Positions 2,792 through 47,339 of a stretch of DNA of 64,000 nucleotides are shown piece after piece. The stretch spans positions 22,258,001-22,322,000 of the forward strand of contig OZ024757.1 of the NCBI GenBank assembly GCA_964016885.1, in the 5' to 3' direction. Below the pieces are notes generated by a model. It worked only from the letters and a program-made list of their open reading frames with translations, was not told where the DNA came from and ran no database searches. Each line of letters begins with the position of its first letter. The stretch's first letter is position 1. This DNA is from Eledone cirrhosa (lineage: Eukaryota). Position numbers and translations under genes: made by a program.

Positions 2792-3434
2792 GCAGCAGAA
2801 CTACCAAACTAGGTAAAAATCAATGAAATTAACAGTCCATATTTGGTATTCTAATAGACAGCCATATAACATTGTATCTGGACAGACATTCACCAGCCTG
2901 GAAATAACTGCAGACCAAAGTACTGGACAACCTCGCCACTGGCTTCAATAACCCCTCACCCACACCCATATAATTCCTCAATTTCTTGCATGTGTGCTCC
3001 CCCTCTCTTTCCCACACTTTATATGTGTGTGTATGTATATATGTATGTATATTACCTAAACTGCGATTCTCTGTTTCTCTCTTTCTCTCTTACTGCTCCC
3101 TCGTTCTCTCTGTTTCTCTTACTTTCTTTCGTCCCCTCTGTCAGTTAACACTTTCTCTCGACTGACACCTCTTCCTCGCACTTCCACTCACTCACTCTCT
3201 GTTTCTCCCCTTCTCACTTCCTCCCGTTCGCTAGGAGTCGGATTTTCCTTCTTTCTCACATCCCATTCACAGCGAAAGGTCTGTTTGCTACACGCTCATG
3301 AATTCAGCCAGTTTATACTGATCGAATAACCATGTTGCTTGTTTTTCTTTCCATCTTCGGTTTGCTTTCCTCCTTCTATGTTGTTTACTTGTCTCACTCG
3401 CTTTACGCGTTTCACTTGTCCCAATAACTTATTT

Positions 3435-3575
3435 TAGTTATTGCTCGCACCAACGTGAGGTATATGATTTTTAATGCAATGAAATACCAATGATCGTTGG
3501 CAAATCACTGATGAGGGACTAATTTTATAATATGTAATCCATGTGCAACCATGCAGTATTCTTCTCCCCATATTT
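3435..3575. repeat. Dispersed repeat (inverted copy at about 43885-44030)
   Basis: ttattgctcgcaccaac..gaggtat..gaaataccaatgat..gttgg..aatcactga(t/c)ga.ggacta shared in reverse orientation. Confidence 0.75.
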
Positions 3576-3750
3576 TTCATATATATATATATATATATAT
3601 TGTTATACTTTGGGAGGGTCATGTTGCCAATAAGAAACACACGCACCAGTTGCTTTCACTTCAATTTATTATAATAAATTTATAAATTTAGGAATTTATA
3701 AATTTCCGGTTGGTTGGTTGGTTCCACAACCAGATGATTGTTTATATATT

Positions 3751-3793
3751 GTCAAAGTTCTTTCGTCACACATTCTGTGACCTCTTCAGTGAC
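3751..3793 (-). ncRNA. Type-I hammerhead ribozyme motif (element about 3598-3894)
   Basis: Minus strand GTCA-CTGAAGA-G-GTCACA(gaatg)TGTGAC-GAAA-GAAC-TT-TGAC; perfect stems I and II. The element terminus tattgttatactt.gggagggtcat is shared with 19044. Confidence 0.75.
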
Positions 3794-4329
3794 TGGGGGT
3801 TCTTTTCTTTGTTTTTTGTGCCTCTCCTTTGTTCTGTCCTACGCCATCTTGTTTTTGACACACAAAAACAAGATGGTGTAGGACAGAACAAAGGTGTGTG
3901 TATGGGTGTGCGTGCGTGCGTGTATATATGTATCTAAGGAAAATGATTAAAAAAAGCGCACCTGGTATATATATAAAGGATTTTTATATGTACAAACATT
4001 GATGTTAAAAATTCATGTTAGCAAAGCCTGCTTTCTCCGTATTGGATTATCAAAACATTTGTCATTGGGTTAAATTGTCTTTTCATTAAGTCTCCTGCAG
4101 TGTGATTCTCAATCACATTGGTTTGGGTCATTTCTGTACTTGCTAAAATAAGGGATACAGCTCATGTGCCTATGCATGTGTATGTGTGTCTATATATATA
4201 TACACATATATATAGAGAGAGTGAGATAAATATTCTTTCCCAGTAATATTCACATTAAACTCCTTCAAAATAATACAGCCTGTAATCTACATTAACAATG
4301 CTACTTCAGTTATTATCTCTTCCATGTGT

Positions 4330-7116: not shown

Positions 7117-8560
7117 TCATCATCACCATTTAGGGTCCATTTTTCTACACTAATCCGTTATTGCCTGCAGGACTATGATGAACAGGAGAGGGCTAAGAAC
7201 AGAGCCCTGGTGGACCCCAACCTGTACGCTAAATTCCTCGCTATACTCATTGCCAATCCTAACTTTGCTGACTGCTCCCCTATACATGGCTTGTACCGTT
7301 TTCACAAGCCATTCATCTACTCCTAGTTTTCTAAGAGCCCACCAGATTACTGCATGTGGAACTCTGTCAAAGGCTTTCTCAAGCAAGTAGAGTGGCTTAC
7401 TTTTAGTTAGGTACTTTTCCTGTAATTGCCTCACAAGGAAGAGGGCATCAGTGGTGCCTTTCCCTGGTACAAACCCAAATTGCATCTCGTCTATATTCAC
7501 CCGGTCCCTAATCAGCTGTGCTATAACTCTTTCTGTTACTTTCATGACCTGGTCCATCAACTTTATACCTCTATAGTTTCCTCTATCTAGTGCATCGCCT
7601 TTACCTTTGTAGCAGTTGACAATGATGCTACTGCACCAATCTTTTGGTATGGCCCCCTCTAGTATTACCTGGTTAACGATACGTGTGGTTATAGTGTGAC
7701 CTACAGACCCAGATGCCTTCAGCATCTCGGCAGCTATACCCGATGGACCGGTTGCCTTCCCTATCTTCATATCTCTGATTGCCTTACTTACTACGCTGCC
7801 GCTGACTTGTACTGCTGGTCCCTCTATAGGGTCTACGTGGGGTAGGGTCTCTTCTTCCCATGCATTCTCCTCATTTAGTAATCTATCATAATGACTCTTC
7901 CATGCATCTTTCTTCTCAGCACTTGTGAGGGCAAGCTCACCTTTATCATTCCGGATACACTTCTCTCCAATGACATCACAACTATCTCTGACACACTGCC
8001 TCGCAATCTTGAATACCTCCTGTTTCTGGTCCTCACGTTGTAAAACATGCTTGAATTTTCTATCCTCTGCTTCCCTCCTAGCTAAGTATACTTGTCGCCT
8101 AGCTTCCCTCTTGGTCTCTATGTAATGTACCCTGCTCCCCCCGTTCTTCCATTCTTTCCATGCCTGTCTCTTGGCCTTGACTGCTTCATCTACCTTATTG
8201 TTCCACCACCAAGTCACTCTCCTCCTGCTTGAGGTCTTACTCCAGCCACAAACCTCATCCGTCGCCTCTAGTAAGTTATTTTTTAGGAACTCCCAGTTCT
8301 CTTCTACGTTAAATGTCTCTATCTGTTCTTCTTTACTGTCGTAGGCGTTGAGTAAAATATCTTTAAATCTGTTACTGGTTGAGGGGACTTTCAGCTTCCA
8401 GATCTTTCTTCTCCAGGTTGGCCTCTGTTTCAGGGCTCGTCTAGTTCTGACCGTGAGGTCACTGACAACTAAGCTATGTTGGGATGTACATTCCTCACTA
8501 GGGAAGGCTTTTGTGTTTACGACCGTCCATCTGTCACGTCCTCTGATGAGGATAAAATCT
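7117..8560 (-). mobile_element. RTE-clade LINE fragment: end of APE endonuclease, tether and N-terminal half of RT; inactive
   Basis: SQHSLVV (APE end), TWWWN, KATGPSG, YKGKGD..NYRGIKL, QFGFVPGKGTTDA, LEKAFDRV, GVHQGSVLSPLLF. Lacks AFVD before LEKAF and stops before YADD; fused directly to the (GAT)n tail. Confidence 0.93.
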
Positions 8561-9196
8561 AATGTATATATATAAAATCTAAAATCTAATGTATATATAT
8601 AAAATCTAATGTATATATATATACAAAGATATATTATATGTGTGAGTTTATGTATATATAATATACATATATACAAAGGCATATTATGTGTGTATAAGTG
8701 TATATATGTATGTGCATATGTAATGTCCGAGAATATCATATCACCCGGTCGGAGAATGAAACTCACAACCTCACGATTGGAAGCTCAATGCTCTAAACAC
8801 TAAGCCATGCACCTTCATATGTACATATGTAATATGTACAATGGCAACTAAAACAAAATACAATGGGGGAGAATATATAGTATGCTTCTGTAGTTATGGC
8901 TGAAGACTGTGTCTTCGGCATTGTTTGTGATACATTTCAAGAAAACAGTCTCTTATTATGAAGAAGCGACAACCATCTTAAACAGGAAATGTACAGGAAA
9001 TGAGCTGTGGGCTTTGTAGGGAAGGTGAGTTATACCATATATACATGTGTGGCATCATTGTCATATTCTAATATCCATTTTGCTTGTGTATATGTGTGTG
9101 TGTACCTGCATATATATATGTGTGTATGTGTGTGTATGTGTGTGTATGTGTGTGTTTATGTGTGTGTGTGTGTACATATAGACACACATATATACA

Positions 9197-9820: not shown

Positions 9821-10104
9821 TTACCCAATTTTTAAAACAGTCATCAACTATTATTGTGGTCACTTACGTTAGGTTCCCTACATATAAAATTTTCCCAAAG
9901 CTCCATAAGTTAAATGTTATTCAACTTAGCACTCTGTATTTATGAAAAGCAGAGTAGATACTTTATGAGTTTTCTGCTCTATGGTTAAGCTTTTACTGTT
10001 GGGAAGAGACCTTTTATATATATATATATGTGTGTTAGGTAATTCCAAAGAAAAAGCAAAGGAAAAAAGAGTGTTCTTTCTAATTAATATATATATATAT
10101 ATAT

Positions 10105-10797
10105 CATCATCATCAGCGTTTAACGTCCATATTCCACGCTAGCATGGGTTTAGACGGGAATTGTCCTACTTGAGGCAAGATTTTTCAGGTGACCATGTCT
10201 TGCTCGTATAGGGCTGTCTGGCAGGTGTTCTACGGCTGGATGCCCTTCCTAACACCAAACACATTTACAAATGTCACCATCTATTACTATATCGATTTAC
10301 AATGATCAATCAACCCTCTGAAACGATTGTAAAACGAAGAGCGAATTAATAACCTATCTTTGACTTTTGTTATATTTTCATTGTTTAATACACACACATA
10401 TGTATAAATGACTGTAGCTAGAGTAGAATTTTCAAGGGAACCTTATGTGATGAGAGCCTAATACAAAAACTATAGCTTTCACCACCTAATGTCATTGAAA
10501 CTATCTCTTCAAGGTTGCAGGGAGTTCTAACAATGTTATTGGCCCCACCATAAGCAGGTGGATACCAGTATATATATATCATCATCATCATCATCGTTTA
10601 ACGTCTATCTTCCATGCTAGCGTGGGTTAGACAGGAGTTGTCCCACTTGAGGCAAGACTGGTCGGGAGACCGTGTCTCGCTCGTATAGGACTGTCTGGCA
10701 GGTTTTCTACGGCTGGATGCCCTTCTTAACACCAACCACATTTACATTGTGGAGTGGGAACTTTTGACCATGTTACCTACACGACCACATTACAGCG
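10105..10797 (-). mobile_element. Two 5'-truncated RTE 3'UTR tails (about 10105-10270 and 10579-10797)
   Basis: (CAT)n + gtttaacgtc..ttccacgctagcatgggtt.gacgggagttgtcc.acttgaggcaag, as at 57243. Confidence 0.8.
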
Positions 10798-11262: not shown

Positions 11263-11320
11263 ATACCTGATGATGTCACCGGATTCATACTGAACCCGGT
11301 CACTGAAATGATCATAGTAT
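11263..11320 (+). ncRNA. Type-I hammerhead ribozyme motif followed by AATAAA
   Basis: ATAC-CTGATGA-[tgtcACCGGaTTCA tac TGAAcCCGGTcact]-GAAA-TGATCA-TA-GTAT-AATAAA; palindromic stem III. Confidence 0.75.
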
Positions 11321-17663: not shown

Positions 17664-17839
17664 TAACAAAGAGGGTGTGGTAAGATACCAGGTGGACCAT
17701 AACGCACCAAAGTACTCAATACTTAGGGTAGTAGAGTGGATAATATGAAAAGAGTCAGGACCCCGACATCTGAGCTTTGGCTGTTGTTCGGATCTAGCTG
17801 TCGAAATGGCCGGAGCTCAGCCATCAGGGTCCTGACTCT

Positions 17840-17847
<8 letters not shown>
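17664..17847. mobile_element. Fold-back element in (TA)n (hairpin 17743-17847)
   Basis: atatgaaaagagtcaggaccc ... gggtcctgactcttttcatat; the family recurs at 25994 and 41918. Confidence 0.75.
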
Positions 17848-17885
<38 letters not shown>

Positions 17886-18488
17886 TCATTATATACCGAG
17901 GAATATGAAACAAACAAATCGTTAGTAAAATGGGGGATTATCTTATATTTGCTATCTAAACATAATGTGTTGATTAGCTGCCTTGGCTTAACAGGGTTGC
18001 GATTTTTGCCCATTTCTCAGATATAGAATAGGAAGGGTCGACTTATATTCGAGAATATATGGCTTATATTCGAATATGTATGGTATGATTTCTAGCAGCA
18101 TTCTTTGTTAAACAATGGAGATGCTGATTTATCAGGTGATTTAAAATTGCGAGTACTTAACATTTTATTATGTTAAGCTGTTGAATCATTAATTTTTCTC
18201 TGCTTTCCTGCAACAGTTCCTGCTTGGGATTGTTGCCTTACAATAATTTAACGTATATGTCTGTTCTGGAATGATCCACTGAGCATATTGTAAGCAACGA
18301 AATTGAAATCATTGTATAGTGATCTAAATCCTTATATATATATATAAAAAGTAAACAGATATAACAAAGCAAACATGAAGAAACATATTAGTTTAACTAG
18401 TAATGGGGAAAGAGTTTTAATAGTTTGGACATAGTCGTTCATCTGAAATTAGAATGAGAAATAAAAGATGAAATAGAAAGATAAAGAG

Positions 18489-18626: not shown

Positions 18627-19043
18627 TTATTTATTTATTTAAAGATAAACAAGGATTTTAATTAAATCATTTAATTGATTTACAGCCATCTTATTAGACT
18701 AACAGTAATATTCCATTCCTGTGAGATTGTAATACTACAGTGATTGATTGGACATTTTCTGATTGGATTAAATTCTAACTGTTTTTTACCTATATTGCTG
18801 TAGACTTTAAAATCATATTGAGCTTTAAAATGTTCTTTGCCTTTATATGGTTCTATTATCAACTCACTCAAACTATATATATATATATATAAGTTAGGTA
18901 ATTCCAAAGGAAAAGCAAAGGAAAAAAGAGTGCTCTATGTATAGAACAGAGCTGTTTTGTGTTGTTCACTTTCTAATTAAATATATGACAGCGATGAATT
19001 TGTTTTGCAAAGTTTTTGATATGAAATCACGTGTCGAAACAAA

Positions 19044-19565
19044 TATTGTTATACTTGGGGAGGGTCATATTGTTGTAATAATATTGCCAGAATTAATAAC
19101 AGAACACACTCACTGTTTGGTTGGTTTTCGCTTCTGTATCTTTTATATCTCCACAGTTAATTCATTCGGTCCTCAATGTTTACCATTGACTGACCAGCGG
19201 TCAAAAATACAGATATAATATAGATATAAAGACATATATATAGTCTAACAAAGTTCTTTCGTTGCACATCTGCAACATCATCAGTGGTACTTTTATGTTC
19301 CTCCTGTTGCGTAGACATACAATACAACAGGAGGAACATAATAGTACCACTGATGATGTTGCAGATGCGCCTATATATATGCTTATATGTTTATATCTGT
19401 ATTTTTTACCGTTGGTCAGTCAATGATAAACATTGAGGACCGAATGAATTAACTGTGGAGATATAAAAGATACAGAAGCGAAAACCAACCAAACAGTGAG
19501 AGTGTTCTGTTATTATTTCTGGCAATATTATTACAACAATATGACCCTCCCCAAGTATAACAATA
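19044..19565. mobile_element. About 520-bp fold-back (inverted pair of Penelope-like terminal repeats)
   Basis: Arms 19044-19309 and 19325-19565 are reverse complements with a 15-nt loop; carries a hammerhead motif. Confidence 0.85.
19246..19290 (-). ncRNA. Type-I hammerhead motif (family of 3751)
   Basis: Minus strand TACCA-CTGATGA-T-GTTGCA(gatg)TGCAAC-GAAA-GAAC-TT-TGTTA; the mirror copy at 19344-19370 has lost GAAA. Confidence 0.7.
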
Positions 19566-19567
19566 AT

Positions 19568-19614
<47 letters not shown>

Positions 19615-19738
19615 ACAGTAAACATTGATGCAATTTAATTCAAGCACTCTACATATTTTTCCCCATAGGAATGATGGAGTATATTTAGAATAAGAAAATC
19701 TGAAGTAGTTACAGATGTTAAAGTCTTTTATTGATAAG

Positions 19739-19813
19739 GCTGTGATACATATTTCAATGACAACAGTGGCCATTTGATTCCATGCAACCAGTGCCATGAT
19801 CTCATCAGACAGC
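19739..19813 (-). ncRNA. Type-I hammerhead motif
   Basis: Minus strand GCTGT-CTGATGA-[gatcATGGCA...TGTCATt]-GAAA-TATGTA-TC-ACAGC, then AATAAA. Confidence 0.75.
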
Positions 19814-19949
19814 TTCATTACATAATAAAGTTACGTTCTGGAGGCAATCCAAATTTAAACTACAAGGGAACGAGCGAAGGCTTCAAAAACATCATCTTTG
19901 TCATTTTAATTTGGATTGCTTCCAGAACGTAACTTTATTATGTAATGAA

Positions 19950-20024
19950 GCTGCCTGATGAGATCATGGCACAGGTTGCGCAGAATAGTGTGGCCACTGT
20001 TGTCATTGAAACGTATATCACAGC
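19950..20024 (+). ncRNA. Type-I hammerhead motif (mirror of 19739)
   Basis: GCTGC-CTGATGA-[gatcATGGCACAG...CTGTTGTCATt]-GAAA-CGTATA-TC-ACAGC; AATAAA at 20031. Confidence 0.65.
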
Positions 20025-20114
20025 CTTATTAATAAAAGACTTTAATATCTACAACTACTTTGGATTTTCTTTCTTTCTCTCTCTCTCTATATATACATAT
20101 GCAAATAGTAACAA

Positions 20115-22764: not shown

Positions 22765-23840
22765 TGGAGGGGGAATATTAGGTGTAGTGTTGGTGAATCT
22801 CAGGAATGGAGGTTTTAAAGGATGCAGTGTCTCGACAGCTAACAACTGATGCCGGTAGTTTGTTCCATGCTTCAGCAACTCTGAGCGTGAAAAAATGTTT
22901 CCGAAAGTCATGGGAACTGTGCTGTTTTCTGACTTTGTGGGCATACCCACGTGTGTTAGACACATGGAAATCGAAAAGGTACTCAGGGTTGTTGTTGGCA
23001 AGATGGTTGATAATTCTGTGGATGTTTACCAAGTCAGTTGCGAGACATTGGAGCTACAATGTATCCATGCCCAGGGAAGCAAGGCATTCAGAGTATGGTA
23101 GATGCCTGCCTGGTGGAGGGTATTCGCTTGGTCGCACGTCTCTGAACAGTTTCCAGGCGGTCGATGTTCTGAGCAAGATAGGGGTTCCAGACTGGTGATG
23201 CAAATTCTAAGTGTGGCTGCACCATAGCTATATACAGCTTTAAATAGATAGCTGGAGAGCGGCTGACAAAGGTCTTGCTGAGTGATGCTAAGACACCCTC
23301 GGCCTTCTTGACAATTTTAGAGACGTGCTTCGTCCAATGCAAATCGTTGATGACCGTAATGTCCAGGTCACGCTCACAAGAAGACTTCTTGATATTAGTG
23401 GTGTGGAGGGAGTATGCGGACACTGGGTTTTTACTCCCAAAATGCATGGTGGTGCACTTGTCCACAGCCAACTTGAGTTGCCAGTCTGTGATCCATTGTT
23501 GCATTGTGTTCAGGTCAGATTGCAGGCAAGATCTATAGTGTTCAGGATCTGTCCTTTTTATCTCAAGGTACAGCTTGATGTCATCTGCATATTTCAGCAC
23601 TGTGGCATTCTTTAAGTTGGCATCTACGTCATTAATGTATGCCACAAACAAAAGGGGGCCAAGAACAGATCCCTGTGGTACACCAGATGACATCTCATAT
23701 GGTGAGGAATGCTGTCCTAGAATCGTGACTGCCTCTCTTCGACTGAGAATGAAGGACTTCAACCAGTTAAAAAGATCATCCTTTACACCCATTGCAGAGA
23801 GTTTTGCCATAAGTCTTTTGTGTGGCACAGAATTGAAAGC
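22765..23840 (-). mobile_element. CR1-clade LINE, 5'-truncated RT C-terminal half; frameshifted near 23100
   Basis: SVPH..L..KL, SGVPQGSVLGPLLF..YIND, KYADDIKLY, W...WQLKL...KC..MH, PHLEFASPVWNPY, VQRRATKRI; then TRGY..K..K....FRKHFFTLRVAEAWNKLPASVV. Confidence 0.92.
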
Positions 23841-24379
23841 GTTAAAGAGAAGGAAGTTGATTAAATTGACCTCAGTGCATTACAGGTACTTTATTTTATC
23901 GACACTGTAAGGATGAATGACAAGGCTAATTTTGGTGGGATTTGAACTCAGAATGTAAAGGTATGTAACTATATGCTGCAAGGCATGTTGTCTGATGCTA
24001 CTAACATAGATTCTCATGTGAGCAAACATAGGAAAGGAAGGGCTGGTCTTTGATGGTAAAAACTGTTAAATATGATCATTTATGACCCCCACCTCCCATA
24101 CATATCATTCCTTTCATGTTCTACTTATTATCATTATATCATATTACCCCCACCCAACCTCCACACCAATCACATTGGGATGATTAAATTTAATATTCTA
24201 GGGTTTAATGTTTAATTTCATTGTTAAAAAATTAATGTTTCTTAATCCTTTATTTTAAAATATGAGAAAGAAATTTACAATTGAACGACATTTACATACA
24301 AAAAAAAAATGAAAAAGAATAGGAAAATGTAAAGGAAATGGAGAGGGAGTGACAGACTCTACACCCTTGTATAGGGAGC

Positions 24380-25502: not shown

Positions 25503-25881
25503 TATTTGATAATATACTGTATGTTTAATTAAAAACATTTTGAAGACCATATATATATATGGTGGCAATAAACAGGGAGGTTATATCTGAAGTAGGTAGA
25601 GCACTCAGTCCAAAGGACGAGTTTGGTATAGAGTAAAAGGGCGAGTTAATTCCACATTAAATTACTAATTTCAGTCTATAAAGAGGTGCACTACTGCAGA
25701 CAAGGGGGCAGTAAAACTAGAAAGGTCAAACTCCATGATAAATAAAACACGAGGTCTGTTGTTCAGTGTCTTTGTGGCAAACATTAACACCAATTCTGTG
25801 CTATTAACAGTTCCTGAAAGTTGGAATGGTTCTACACAAGCCTTCACCACTTAAAACAAATCATCCATGTTGGGTATTCGG

Positions 25882-25944
<63 letters not shown>

Positions 25945-25945
25945 A

Positions 25946-25993
<48 letters not shown>

Positions 25994-25995
<2 letters not shown>

Positions 25996-26157
25996 CGAAG
26001 GAGTTGTGGTAAGGAACCAGATGGACCATAACGCACCAGAGTACTCAATACTTAGAGTAGTAGAGTGGGTAATAGGAAAATGTATGACCCTGACGGCAGA
26101 GCTCAAGCCGTTTTGACAGCTATTTCTGGACTTTTCAGTCCAGAAATAGCCGTCGAA
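25994..26157. mobile_element. Fold-back family copy (hairpin 26112-26157)
   Basis: aacgaaggagttgtggtaaggaaccagatggaccataacgcacc...; gacagctatttctggact-tttc-agtccagaaatagccgtc. Confidence 0.75.
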
Positions 26158-26159
26158 TT

Positions 26160-26470
26160 CAGTATTTGTGCCAACCCTTACCTATGTTTATGGGTAATGA
26201 CTGAAAGAATACATTCGCAAATATAAACAGCCAAAATGGAGTAACATTATTCGATAGAGTGCATAGCTTGGAGATCAGGTAGTTGCTCCAGATAGATCTA
26301 CTATTTCTACAAATTGAGTGATACTATGGGCATGTAGTTAGAATGTACCAGGAAAGAATCGCTGGACAGATTTTATGGGCAAACCAACCAATAGGAGACC
26401 CAGGTTTAAACCCCAAGCAAGATGATTTGATAACATCCATGAGCTTGGCTGGTGTTGCTTGGGAATCTGT
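26160..26470 (+). mobile_element. Old RTE LINE C-terminal remnant
   Basis: Broken peptides VFVPTLTY / VMTERI / DRVHSLEIR / YGHVVRMYQERIA.QILWA; related minus-strand remnant at about 56280-56500. Confidence 0.65.
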
Positions 26471-33297: not shown

Positions 33298-34192
33298 CGA
33301 GGTGTGTTAGTAAAGGTCCAGGACTGATGCCACAAAAGATTTATTTCAAACCCAAACTTCACACTAAGAGTTTTCTCCTTCAAAGTAATCCCCCTGGAGT
33401 ATGTAACTGTAATCTTAGCTCTCTGCAGCGATCAAACTTTTTTCTTCATAATTTTATATACATGTCCTCTGTTTCAGGTCGTCAAGCAATGAGCACAGAG
33501 TAACGAACAAACTTGAAAACTCCGTCAGAAGCACTGGGATTGCTGCAGCAAGTGTATGAAGATGAGACGATGTCATGGTCACGTGTTTTTGAGTGGTGCA
33601 AGAGGTTTAAAGAAGGACGCGAGGATGTGGAAGATGACCCCAGGAGCGGAAGGCTCTCAACAACCAGGACTGAGGTCAACGTTGAGTGCGTCAGGCAGAT
33701 GGTGCGTAGCAATCGTCGGCTGACTGTTCGACTGATGGCAAATGAGCTGGGCATGAATCGGGACTGCGTCTGGAAGATTCTCGCTGCAGATTTGGACATG
33801 CAGAAAGTCTGCGCGAAGATGGTGCCAAAACTGCTGAACGATGACCAGAAGGGTCGACGCATGCAAGTGTGCCAGGACATCCTCGAGCGTCTTGAAACCG
33901 AGCCAGACTTGCTAGGGACAGTCATCACCGGTGATGAGTCATGGATCTTCGAGCACGACTCAGATGGGACCCGTTTTGAAGACGTGGACGACATCAAACA
34001 GGCCGTGACAACGGCACTGCGGAGGATCCCGGAAGAATCCTCTAGGAGTGCATGCAAGCATGGCAGAAAAGGATGGAAAAGTGCATTAGACACCAGGGGG
34101 ATTACTTTGAAGGAGAAAACTCTTAGTGTGAAGTTTGGGTTTGAAATAAATCTTTTGTGACATCAGTCCTGGAACTTTTCTGACCCACCTCA
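33298..34192 (+). mobile_element. Internally deleted mariner element with about 100-bp inverted termini
   Basis: VFEWCKRFKEGREDVEDDPRSGR, KVCAKMVPKLL, VITGDESWIF, then a jump to GTRFEDVDDIK; frameshifted GDYFEGE end; TA flanks; 33298-33400 is the reverse complement of about 34090-34192. Confidence 0.93.
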
Positions 34193-41917: not shown

Positions 41918-42262
41918 AACGAAGGAATTGTGGTAAGGAACCAGATGGACCATAACGCACCAGAGTACTCAATACTTAGGGTAGTAGAGTGGGTAATAGG
42001 AAAAAGTATGACTCCGACGGCAGAGCTCGAGCCGTATCGACAGCTATTTCTGGACTGAAATAGCCGTCGAAATGGCTTGAGCTCTGCCGTCGGGGTCATA
42101 CTTTTTACTATATATATATATATATATATAGGAACGAGTAGGACCCCGACGGCTGAGCTCAAGCCGTCGGGGTCCTACTCGTTCCTATTACCCACTCTAC
42201 TACTATTGAGTACTTTGGTGTGTTATGGTCCATCTGGTTCCTTACCACATTTCCTTCGTTTT
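41918..42262. mobile_element. Two adjacent fold-back copies of the 17664/25994 family, in opposite orientation
   Basis: Hairpins about 42001-42106 and 42128-42188, separated by (TA)n; outer arms are reverse complements. Confidence 0.78.
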
Positions 42263-42779: not shown

Positions 42780-43172
42780 TTCTCTTAATTTCGAGTATAT
42801 TTATTTGACCGGCCACCTTCCTGGTGGCAAGGTTGTAAAGGAAAAGAAATTGTCATCCCTTGAATCGCAAGAATGTTTTGCAGATTTTGAAGGAGCCAGC
42901 TATCGCAGCCATTTGTAGACTATGAATTAGGGAGCTGCGCTCTTTGCTCGCAAATCCAAGTTCAGTCATACTTTGGTCCAAGCGGGTTGATATATAACCC
43001 GTAGCTCCAATAATGATGGGTATGACGCTAAAGGTGTATCTTGGATACTGGATTTGTAAACTCCTCATCAATGGTCCGTAGATGTCCTCCTTCTCCTGTA
43101 TTTTTCTGACAACGTTTACATCAAGTGGGCAGCTGATCTCCACAACAGAACACGTTTTCAATGTGTGGTCCC
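42780..43172 (-). mobile_element. 3' fragment of an RLE-type (R4/Dong-like) non-LTR retrotransposon
   Basis: WDHTLKTCSVVEISCP..EKEDIYGPL...VIPIIIGATG..LQMAAIAGS.KI: typical C-terminal restriction-like endonuclease; stop at 42853. Confidence 0.8.
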
Positions 43173-43569
43173 AATAAACCTTTCAAGGAATTACACCAGT
43201 CTAGCCTCCTGTTATTTTATAATAATTAACTCAGTACGCGCACCACCAACTACACAAACGAAGACGGGTGAGTTGCATTACGTTGAGTGCTCTCCATAAT
43301 ATTACATCGAGATTGACCATGCGGAATGACCAGTTCTATCCAGTGGTGAACCAACAAACCTAAATATATATATATATATATATAGTATTAAGGATACTAT
43401 TTATGGTTGTGTATATACAAAAATCTTTTATAGTTATATATATTTTAAACCCTAAATAGTGAAAGACAGTAATTTATTACTACCTTATAACCAGTAAGAT
43501 AAATAGCTCAAATGTAACAACATCAGTAGTTCTACAGAACAGTTATATAGTTATATATATATATATATA

Positions 43570-43743
43570 TATTATTCAGAATATTAATAAATGAAGACAT
43601 TCACATAATCAAAATATATGTTTTATTATATATATTTCGAAGGTCGAGGACGTATTGAAAAAACAGCACAGTACCTTTGAAATGTATATAATAAAACATT
43701 TTGATTATGTGAATGTCTTCATTTATTAATATTCTGAATAATA
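43570..43743. mobile_element. Fold-back of the TTTTAT-family hammerhead element, broken inside the ribozyme
   Basis: Left arm ends tttcgaaggt (43644); right arm begins gaggacgtattg (43646) and lacks CTGAT. Confidence 0.78.
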
Positions 43744-43835
43744 TTAATAACTCCAGAAAACTTCATTGTAGAGTGCTTTTAATCTATTGTAAAACTATAT
43801 TCATTGAGTAATCAATGAACCATGTTAATCTTTGG

Positions 43836-43890
<55 letters not shown>

Positions 43891-44473
43891 GAGAAGAAAG
43901 AAGAATACTGCATGGTTTGCACATGGGTTACATATGATAAAAATAGTCCTTCGTCAGTGATTTTCCAACCATCATTGGTATTTCATCGCATTAAAGACCA
44001 GATACCTCAGGTTGGTGCGAGCAATAATTAAAAAAAGTTATTGGGACCAGAATTCGCGTAAGGTGAGGGGGGACAAGTAAACAACATAGAAGGATAAAAG
44101 CAAATCGAAGATAGGAAAATAAACAAGCAATATATATATATATGTATGTATGTATGTATATATGCTTTTGCAGATATGTAAGTACATACATATATATATA
44201 TCTATACAATATATTAATAAATGGAAACTATATTTATAAAACCATATTTATTTTATTATACAACCAAGACAAATTATGGTGCGCTTATAAATATAGTTTT
44301 CATTTATTAATATATTGTGTATTTACTCCACTAACCTCTTGAGTGCTTTATATCAGTTATAAACATTTTTAAGCTTGTTGAATCCCAACAAATTAAATAT
44401 AACCTCTGCATATATATATATATATTATTTAAAATATTAATAAATGGATACATTCACATAATCAAAATATATG

Positions 44474-44535
44474 TTTTATTATATATATTTCGGAGGTACT
44501 GTGCTGTTTTTTCAGTACGTCCTCATCAGATAAAA
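44474..44535 (-). ncRNA. Type-I hammerhead ribozyme motif, apparently intact
   Basis: Minus strand TTTTAT-CTGATGA-GGAcGTACTG(aaaaaacagca)CAGTACcTCC-GAAA-TATATA-TA-ATAAAA. Confidence 0.82.
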
Positions 44536-44760
44536 TACATAAATTGATGCATGACATACCTCAACTGTGCTGATGGTTCAATTCCAGTCTTATATATATA
44601 AATAAATATACACGAGTGTGTATGATTGTGTATAGAAGATTATATTAATAAAAGGAATTCCAACTTTGTCTGATTTACTCGTTTCATTTACAATCCTTTA
44701 AAATTTATAATGGTATTAGAATGAAATAGTATGGTAGAATATTAAATGTTAAATGTTAAT

Positions 44761-44799
44761 TGAACAAGTACTTTCATGCTTTCGCAATCTTCAGGTTCA
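44761..44799 (-). ncRNA. Minimal type-I hammerhead motif
   Basis: Minus strand TGAAC-CTGAAGA-tTGC(gaaa)GCAt-GAAA-GTAC-TT-GTTCA; GNRA-capped stem II, palindromic stem III. Confidence 0.75.
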
Positions 44800-45019
44800 T
44801 ATTCAGTGGTGACAGTCAAGTTTTCAATTTTCAACTGTGTATATGCTTTTGCAGATATCTAAGTACATTTATATATATATATATGCAGGTATATATTTAA
44901 ACACACACATATCTCTGCATATATGTATGTACATTTATGTATGTAAATATATATTTACATACTCACACACACATATTTTTAGTGTGCATGTCTGTGTGAG
45001 AGTATGTATATATATATAT

Positions 45020-45105
45020 ATATAAAACAGAGCATGTCTGTCTGTCTGTCTGACTCCCTAAAACTCGAGAACCACCCAACCGATTGTTTTCAAACTTTAC
45101 ACATG
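45020..45105 (+). mobile_element. Possible non-autonomous Helitron-like 5' end
   Basis: tataaaa..(tgtc)n..aactcgagaaccacccaaccgatt..caaacttt pattern recalled from invertebrate non-autonomous Helitrons; candidate hairpin+CTAG end near 46412-46440. Confidence 0.4.
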
Positions 45106-45937
45106 TAATACTGTGATCTGTGTGTATGTGAATGTGTGTACAACACAGCTATATATATATGTGGATGTGTGTGTGTGTGAATGTGTGTACAACACAGCTA
45201 TATATATATATGTTGATGTGTGTGTATGTGTGTCTACAAGACAGATGTATATAAATGGACGAGTATACATGTGTGTGTGTCTGTACCAGAGAGCTGTATA
45301 TGTGAATGTTTGTGTATGTGAGTGTGTATATATGTTGATGTGTGTGTACAAAACAGCTGCACATATGTGGATATGTATACATGTGTGTGTATGTGTGTAC
45401 ACAAAACAGCTGCATATATTTGGATGTGTATACACATCTTTTCATGGAGTTTATTTATTGGAGAGATACCATACAGATAAAATACTTCGAAATGCATGAA
45501 AAGGAAATGGAACATGGAAACAGAGAATTTCATGCATGCATGAGCCCTTAACTGTTGATTGAGTCCTAGGGACGCTGTAGTGACATACATTTATACTCAG
45601 TGGAACCCACTCCCTATTCAAGTGAAAATACAGCTGATTTCCTCAAGTGAGACAGTGAGAGTGAGGAAGAGATATAGAAGTGTCAACCTCTGTACTTGAC
45701 TGGTACTTTGTTTATTGACCTTGAAATAAATTGTATTGTAGTATCAATGGCAGGTTTAGCTAGGTTAATATCGAAATGTTGAATATATATATATATATAT
45801 ATATGCAAAAGTTTTATTTAAAATTGTTGGGTTACAACAAGTAAATATTTTATAACCGATATAAAGCACTCGACAAGTTTTTGGAGTAGATATACGATAT
45901 TAAACAAATGGAAACTATATTTATAAAACCATATTTA

Positions 45938-45999
45938 TTTCATTATACATATTTCAGGGATACCATATTAAAAATATGGCATGCCTTCGTCAGATAAAA
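45938..45999 (-). ncRNA. Type-I hammerhead motif (mirror of 46129)
   Basis: Reverse complement of 46129-46190. Confidence 0.78.
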
Positions 46000-46128
46000 T
46001 ACAATATATAAACAGTTTTATAAATAATTTTGACGTACCATAAATATAATTTTGACGTACCATAAATATAATGGTCGCTTATATTTATGGTACGTCAAAA
46101 TTATTTATAAAACTGTTTATATATTGTA

Positions 46129-46190
46129 TTTTATCTGACGAAGGCATGCCATATTTTTAATATGGTATCCCTGAAATATGTATAATGAAA
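46129..46190 (+). ncRNA. Type-I hammerhead motif
   Basis: TTTTAT-CTGACGA-AGGcATGCCATATT(ttt)AATATGGTATcCCT-GAAA-TATGTA-TA-ATGAAA, overlapping AATAAA. Confidence 0.78.
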
Positions 46191-47339
46191 TAAATATGGT
46201 TTTATAAATATAGTTTCCATTTGTTTAATATCGCAAGATTCAAACAATTTATTAAAATAAATTAAAAAATATAATTTAAATATTCACCTATTCCATTTGC
46301 TTTTACCAACGGTTTCACCTCACAAAAGCTTGGAAATCCTAGGGACTTCCAATGGAAATGTTCGGATCTTCAGAGACCATTTTCCCTACCTAGCACAAAA
46401 GTCCTAGGAACGGCAAAATATATTGCCACCTGCCAGCTAGCACAGGATCGAATGAGGCCGTAAACTTGACCTGTGCATGAACCAGCCCTTAGTAGAAGCA
46501 AAAGTAAACATAGACGTGTTGTCTATCACGCCACTAAAAATAGCAACTAAATAAAATAAAATTAATCTCCGTTTATATATATATATATATTTATATATAA
46601 TAGTATGTTATTTGAAGGCTATCAGAATGCAAAATGGACGGTAGATTTCGTAATAAATTGAAGGCAATGAAGATGTTGGTGTGTCACCTGTTATTTTATT
46701 TACCTGTCCTAATATTTTGGGTCTAAAAACTCTTTGTAAGAAGAATATAATAAGAATCTGGATTGAAGTTCATGCTTTTGTTGTTACATGTATCTGTATG
46801 TGTGTATGTATATATTTATATACACATACATATACGTGTGTGTGTGTGTGTTAGTTTTTGTTGTGGAGACAATTGAGTTAGTGGTTAGTTTGATCAGTTC
46901 ATAACTGTAAGGTAGTGAGTTCAATCCCTGCCTGCACCATGCAGCATGTTGTATCCTTGAGCAAGACACTTTATTTCATGTTACTCCAGTGGTCTGAAGT
47001 CTTATCTCTTTCTACTGTATTAACAATATCGAAAGCTCTAATAACAGAACAAAATGATCTGTTGTGGACCAGGGTCAGATGAAGCCATCCTATTTTTATA
47101 TATTTAAAGAAACTTTCTCCCCAATCCTAAGTGTCATCTGATTAACGCATAAGAGTGAGATAAGAGGCATAATTATTGAACTCACTGATATCAACTTTAT
47201 ATGAGAAAGGTGACTGGTTTGATCTATCGAGACTCCAGTAATACCATCATTAACAGGTTCTATACTATTGGTTTAATTGATTCAGAGCTACTACCAAAAT
47301 CTACCTAATTAGCACTTTACTGTACATACTCACATGGAA

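Follow-up and report, generated by a model that had tools for sequence, protein, structure and literature searches.

Results

The window, by which we mean the whole 64,000-nucleotide stretch of DNA analysed, is AT-rich eukaryotic DNA dense in microsatellites and scraps of retroelements. Two genuine hairpins lie next to each other in it, and the locus reads, from left to right, as an older repeat, a tail (tail A), two arms, a (TA)20 tract, a second tail (tail B) and two further arms that run out into (TC)n(TA)n. The older repeat is a TA-flanked fragment (18892..18986, plus strand, orientation uncertain) with a 95% match over 44 nt to 10034-10077, and its 3' edge is the target of the first hairpin, pair 1. 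The (TA)20 microsatellite, seen directly in the sequence at 19571..19611, is common to both insertions. An earlier note on this DNA had placed the two hairpins 130 bp apart and called them unrelated; both pairs were confirmed and BLAST found no match between them, but their boundaries are wider than had been given, about 18987-19565 for pair 1 and 19612 to about 20090 for pair 2. Since other copies of the pair 2 family (family B) run from the arm through 19612-19691, the supposed 130-bp spacer is mostly element-derived and not host DNA, being composed of a probable target-site duplication of pair 1, the (TA)20 tract and the pair 2 tail.

The left arm of pair 1 (19044..19309, minus strand) is a pLTR-like end of family A, whose last 30 nt match the end of the solo element at 3597-3800 with 93% identity. 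In the arm alignment an unpaired centre of 15 nt (19310..19324) separates it from the right arm (19325..19565, plus strand), which carries no tail. The alignment (19041-19309 on the minus strand against 19325-19568 on the plus strand) has 234 matches, 10 mismatches and 25 gap columns, that is, 10 mismatches per 244 aligned letters or an arm divergence of 4%. The left arm holds a minimal type I hammerhead (19247..19289, minus strand) with an extra nucleotide after A9, a 6-bp stem II, a 1-bp stem III and one mismatch in stem I. In the right arm the motif is broken by a deletion of 20 nt, equivalent to 19244-19263, and these are the letters that hold the GAAA core; thus, as the earlier note had it, the hammerhead is complete in the left arm alone.

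A direct repeat of 13 bp surrounds pair 1, its left copy at 18974..18986 being identical to the right one at 19564..19576, which overlaps the arm end by 2 nt. The window contains three copies of this 13-mer, with both strands counted. As a control, 100 TA tracts were examined for a comparable repeat 300-800 bp upstream, and 8 had one; seven of these were in simple-repeat DNA and the eighth was that of pair 1 itself. The repeat is a probable target-site duplication. Between it and the end of the left arm there would be a one-sided 3' tail (18987..19043, minus strand), which we infer for family A, within the window, from the direct repeat only. The left-flank homolog at 10034-10104, whose block 10034-10077 runs directly into (TA)n, passes straight into that tract and resembles an empty site; read together with the direct repeat it gives a tail of about 55 nt, and a longer version reaching 18890 was dropped on these grounds. 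The short end is the point where the right arm of pair 1 stops and also where the solo relative at 3597 stops. A metagenome scan with the terminal motif of family A gave 0 matches.

The left arm of pair 2 (19680..19873, minus strand) was delimited by the arm alignment and by other copies of the family, and it is continued by a one-sided 3' tail of about 62-68 nt (19612..19679, minus strand) that is part of family B, as other copies span arm and tail. Its type I hammerhead (19741..19813, minus strand) combines a short stem III with a long stem II whose fourth pair is a C.C mismatch. The right arm (19898..20090, plus strand, from the arm alignment) has no tail and includes the terminal (TC)n(TA)n. 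Over 174 nt (19692-19865, minus strand, against 19898-20071, plus strand) the arms show 22 differences, a divergence of 13%. The earlier statement that the cores are complete in both arms is borne out, all core nucleotides being present in each; in the right hammerhead (19950..20022, plus strand) the first stem I pair is mismatched and, judged by eye, so is that of stem III. Within the centre (19874..19897), the segment 19885-19897 appears, with moderate support, to be upstream family sequence in the orientation of the right arm: it resembles a loose end at 19860 in run X4 (2 contigs), and in run X1 the depths summed there reach about 280-330, where most single contigs have 5-10.

Evidence from beyond the window consisted of contigs of sequencing runs and of reads aligned to one pair 2 arm plus its tail. 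Family B is high-copy, with 1674 contigs of run X1 aligned on 286 nt, and the records 19614-19765, 19639-19773 and 19664-19860 are other copies of it which bridge arm and tail. Loose ends into (TA)n were found at 19680 (11, 9 and 4 contigs in X1, X2 and X4) and at 19618 (9 contigs in X2), so that the family has short and long 3' ends about 62 nt apart; pair 2 has the long end on its left arm and the short end on its right arm. In run X14 read ends accumulate at 19855, but this was rejected as an element boundary, since the position coincides with an AATT site, which we take to be a library cut site. Record 21 of run X4 is a contig of 2410 nt ending in the family B hammerhead region, and the 2.3 kb upstream may hold the parent ORF.

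A hand-written descriptor of the type I hammerhead matches the window at 13 places, whereas 200 local dinucleotide shuffles averaged 0.075 matches and never gave more than 1. On inspection, the match at 10116 is an artefact of a GAT repeat. Rfam gave no hammerhead family among its 21 matches to 19000-20100 (E<=10) and, among the 150 listed of 271 matches to the window, only microRNA-type matches to simple repeats and hairpins; hence the hammerhead call rests on the descriptor. The hammerhead was not the predicted minimum-energy fold of the left motif of either pair, and no isolated motif folded better than shuffles (z from -1.5 to 0.5), which is expected since minimal hammerheads are thought, in the accessible part of PMC4209133, to act as dimers. 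By descriptor and pairing the motifs have the minimal type I form of endonuclease-positive (EN+) Penelope-like elements (PLEs), and we regard them as predicted ribozymes.

The family A type of hammerhead (extra nucleotide after A9, 6-bp stem II) is also present in the solo relative at 3789, and the long stem II of family B with its C.C mismatch at pair 4 is also found at 11267, 11600, 44529, pair 3 and 53037. The long-stem II hammerheads (11267, 11600, 19808/19955, 44529, 45993/46135 and 53037) are divergent in sequence and keep C.C at the fourth stem II pair at 6/6 loci; the mismatch is possibly a tertiary contact. Solo hammerheads at 682 and 32624 have a short stem II and are unrelated to families A-C, and a repeat family at 3400-3580 and 43899-44050 (89% identical) has the CTGANGA half-core without the GAAA half and ends in (TA)n.

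The pair 2 arms had been described as differing most in the stem II loop while the cores are kept. The cluster stands, with 8/20 differences in distal stem II against 14/154 (Fisher p=0.0009), but its reading as a free loop does not: six of the eight fall at CpG sites, and the family majority letters turn "loop II" into a CpG-rich extension of stem II. Altogether, CpG sites account for 11 of the 22 arm differences, two of these being assigned from right arm letters alone. Selection on the core with a free loop was rejected because the excess is gone once CpG sites are removed (2/20 in stem II against 9/154 elsewhere, p=0.62). The window as a whole is CpG-depleted (observed/expected 0.39). At the level of sequence, neutral decay after insertion, fastest at CpG, explains the pair 2 pattern. 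Pair 2 is probably the older of the two insertions (p=0.002 with all differences counted, a gap inflated by CpG content).

The earlier note had proposed comparing the arms with the family in order to tell one template from two. Among the listed arm sites there are 12 at which the left arm departs from the family majority (at least 70% of depth); the right arm agrees with the left in its minority letter at 7 of these, and it carries the majority letter at 3 and a third letter at 2. The majority letters are depth-weighted contig sums among listed positions and not copy counts. Judged by the seven shared minority letters, the arms come from one source lineage, either one RNA molecule or two sister RNAs; for the same reason two different subfamily sources were rejected.

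The arms also bear on the idea that a solo copy was duplicated in inverted orientation after its insertion, or that the hairpins are artefacts of assembly. Assemblers are troubled by palindromes, and no listed contig piece spans the entire aligned stretch. However, arm divergence is 4% in pair 1 and 13% in pair 2, CpG-type decay has touched both arms, X1 and X2 each have contigs containing the joint 19852/19897, and polarity and tails are uniform across three families, which makes such an origin extremely improbable.

Family C forms three further fold-backs in the window (43569-43744, 44203-44321 and 45895-46233). All five hammerhead-family fold-backs found in the window are head-to-head (left arm minus, right arm plus), and each has exactly one tail. 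The same divergent polarity had been claimed for every inverted pair, and it holds for these five; the pair at 41919-42260, which has no hammerhead core, is not orientable. The latter, with apparent relatives near 25861-26181 and 17723-18016, represents a TA-flanked nested fold-back family. The family C tails 44315-44410 and 45803-45898 share 80% identity across 95 nt. Tails of three families (19612-19691, 43740-43836, 44315-44410, 45803-45898 and 43216-43362) contain a short pair of motifs, ACTC ... GAGTGCT, which could form a stem; the pattern matches 10 times window-wide, which limits its specificity. In the region 43550-46240, the three family C fold-backs are crowded together with two solo elements into 2.7 kb, and the arms of 45895-46233 are 100% identical over 155 nt, suggesting recent insertion or arm conversion.

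In the contigs, opposite-strand joints numbered 8 among the 15 of 23 joints listed, each in 1-2 contigs and each at a different place. One of the eight is probably the pair 2 locus itself and five are unreadable; the two from other loci that could be oriented by record coordinates (19772/19860 and 19816/19871) are both head-to-head. Readable cases are thus head-to-head in 7/7 (p=0.008 against even odds), in a small and partly hand-picked sample.

These joints weigh on a reading of the hairpins as MITE-like DNA transposons, with the hairpins as their terminal inverted repeats, multiplied at TA sites as units of fixed composition. The size of 400-580 bp, the long inverted arms and the TA flanks would agree with it. 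Nevertheless, the copies do not keep one centre and two ends as a fixed unit would: the eight opposite-strand joints are all distinct, centre junctions vary between copies and solo arms are common (3597, 11600, 44529 and 53037). Moreover, one-sided tails and a 13-bp direct repeat are unlike the work of a TA-duplicating transposase. The MITE-like origin is largely refuted and we regard it as very improbable.

A local insertion hotspot, as previously suggested, was not established. The site is not unique, four TA tracts in the window being common to two different elements (3579-3600, 19571-19611, 43837-43884 and 44410-44425); under random choice among 108 tracts, the probability of four or more ranges from 0.0008 to 0.06 for 12 to 20 insertion ends. 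Microsatellite targeting with some piling-up is enough, and nothing marks the 19571-19611 tract as special.

Discussion

According to these data, the locus very probably holds two independent dead-on-arrival PLE ends (pLTRs with a hammerhead) which belong to two families and sit one at each edge of a single (TA)n tract, with arms that have been decaying neutrally. Each hairpin looks like a separate and heavily 5'-truncated insertion of a PLE end, with two hammerhead-bearing arms placed head-to-head and a 3' tail on one of them. We infer PLE membership from traits shared with EN+ PLEs: an inverted, 5'-truncated head-to-head copy (5/5 in the window and 2/2 readable joints elsewhere), an optional 3' tail on one end (the family B ends 19680/19618 and the homologous family C tails) and an AT-rich or microsatellite target with a short duplication (the (TA)n flanks and, at pair 1, the 13-bp direct repeat). 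The earlier suggestion of a link to the inverted repeats of Penelope elements and of a shared integration mechanism is likewise upheld by the head-to-head polarity, the tails on one side, the (TA)n flanks and the probable target-site duplication, and by analogy the copies would work like PLE insertions.

No PLE reverse transcriptase or GIY-YIG domain was found in the 146 window frames scanned with Pfam (264 frames passed the filter), as expected if the ends are truncated. The 63-aa open frame over arm and tail of pair 2 gave no usable match in the Atlas and a single spurious one in a profile-free protein search, to a repetitive protein of 1306 aa with 20 weak stretches, which was rejected. Elsewhere in the window, 7153-8784, 23091-23879 and 33504-34157 hold two LINE-type reverse transcriptase remnants and a mariner-type transposase fragment. 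The segment 20180-20470 is a copy of an abundant dispersed repeat of ~190 nt, with >10 copies in the window, which we take to be SINE-like.

At 42790-43362, the end of a minus-strand LINE-like ORF (42856-43182) stands head-to-head with the 3' end and ~140-nt tail of the hammerhead family at 11267, with no TA between them. The 42856-43182 frame had an Atlas score of 0.96 to unnamed eukaryotic clusters, no Pfam match and nothing significant in a PDB search; presumably it is an R4/Dong-like endonuclease. The arrangement is possibly a chimeric insertion from two different RNAs, or else a deletion between neighbours.

It must be considered whether the ends are instead non-autonomous, retrozyme-like hammerhead retroposons moved in trans by a PLE or, for example, by a microsatellite-targeting LINE. 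No parent ORF was found, the short ends reach a very high copy number, the related end 43173-43362 abuts an inverted LINE-like ORF fragment, and animal retrozymes derive from PLE pLTRs according to the available part of a preprint (bioRxiv 10.64898/2026.07.22.740005). Against this, the locus has only inverted copies and none of the head-to-tail tandem hammerhead units that define non-LTR retrozymes, the tail and the head-to-head layout are PLE traits, and the X4 contig extends 2.3 kb upstream of the hammerhead into what may be the parent ORF. We therefore hold a retrozyme-like origin to be improbable.

For a PLE insertion the enzyme steps can be proposed after the Anolis element, as described in the accessible sections of PMC11167929. 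A GIY-YIG endonuclease would nick AT-rich DNA, and reverse transcription would start at one of two internal RNA sites, giving a long end with a tail or a short end without one. The early-terminated cDNAs would be joined at their 5'-truncated ends, and the arms would then decay neutrally, fastest at CpG.

As to how the hairpin itself is formed, we give about even chances to priming from both nicked strands and favour it over self-priming on an antisense template, which seems rather unlikely. In self-priming the strand folds back and copies itself, so that one arm is a subset of the other. This was proposed for head-to-head palindromes (PMC3846280, in the part available), and it agrees with the minority letters common to both pair 2 arms, with a small palindrome in the middle of that pair and with the fold-back 43569-43744, which has tail and 5' overhang on the same arm and fits either model. 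However, the tail of pair 2 is on the left arm and the extra upstream sequence, known from a 2-contig loose end, is seemingly on the right, so neither arm would contain the other. Tail and 5' overhang thus seem to lie on opposite arms, which favours two-strand priming; pair 3 weakly points the same way (alignment score 30 against 27), and both strands were extended in vitro in the experiments reported in the accessible part of PMC11167929.

Tentatively, each fold-back might consist of two cDNAs primed from both nicked strands by an asymmetric PLE dimer, one side using the long (tailed) start and the other the short one, with the truncated ends joined. If this were true, exactly one tail per hairpin would be predicted (5/5 here), tail and 5' overhang would often be on opposite arms (pair 2 and, weakly, pair 3), head-to-head joins with unrelated RNA would occur occasionally (a candidate being 43172/43173) and the published self-priming model would be ruled out. 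Our literature search, with most subscription papers outside its reach, found no paper that scored the hairpins of PLEs for the arm of the tail relative to that of the 5' overhang. Short hairpins whose two junctions are both preserved provide evidence on the open question of how PLEs form inverted repeats and tails, since scoring the tail arm and the 5'-overhang arm for each insertion tells the two priming models apart, and thousands of them in one genome would make a test set ready for use. Such hairpins are also easily mislabelled as MITEs or microRNA hairpins in repeat annotation.

Complex insertions of EN+ PLEs are the closest known systems. In the portions available, Arkhipova et al. 2013 (PMC3846280) and Craig et al. 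2021 (PMC8557442) describe inverted, 5'-truncated pLTRs placed head-to-head with a tail on one of them, the latter also reporting a (TA)n bias for Naiad and discussing a microsatellite bias for Neptune. The present hairpins share the head-to-head arms, the one-sided tail, the AT-rich or (TA)n target and a direct repeat of ~10 bp where visible, but both arms here are truncated to the pLTR, with no ORF, and the tails are of 55-140 nt as opposed to 30-40 bp in published PLEs. For the minimal hammerheads, the accessible text of Cervera and de la Pena 2014 (PMC4209133) reports dual motifs 100-700 bp apart on opposite strands, with a type I core, long stem II, short stem I and minimal stem III, all of which are found here. 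The family A motif also resembles that description in its extra, unpaired nucleotide after A9, 5' of stem II, whereas families B and C have a stem II of at least 9 bp, the C.C mismatch at pair 4 (6/6 loci) and no extra nucleotide, a combination not seen in that part of the paper. Since the copies are inverted, the two hammerheads lie on different RNA strands and are unable to form a dimer within a single transcript.

Frangieh et al. 2024 (PMC11167929, accessible part) found that the Anolis element Poseidon cuts and extends both strands and that two reverse transcription start sites define the tail. Two such start sites downstream of the hammerhead, an AT-rich target and a frame open from stem II (63 codons in the left arm of pair 2, with p about 0.025 relative to resampled sequence) are likenesses to our families, which differ in the larger distance between the two ends. 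Animal non-LTR retrozymes, as far as that preprint's available part goes, are likewise short, non-coding, pLTR-related and equipped with a type I hammerhead, but they are head-to-tail tandem units, as opposed to the inverted copies here. PMC13282606 lists active PLE families in an octopus, its main text being without the word "hammerhead". Taken together, published accounts of PLEs already include head-to-head polarity, a tail on one side, hammerheads close by on opposite strands and targeting of (TA)n, and the locus is mostly ordinary PLE debris, a further example of a known architecture.
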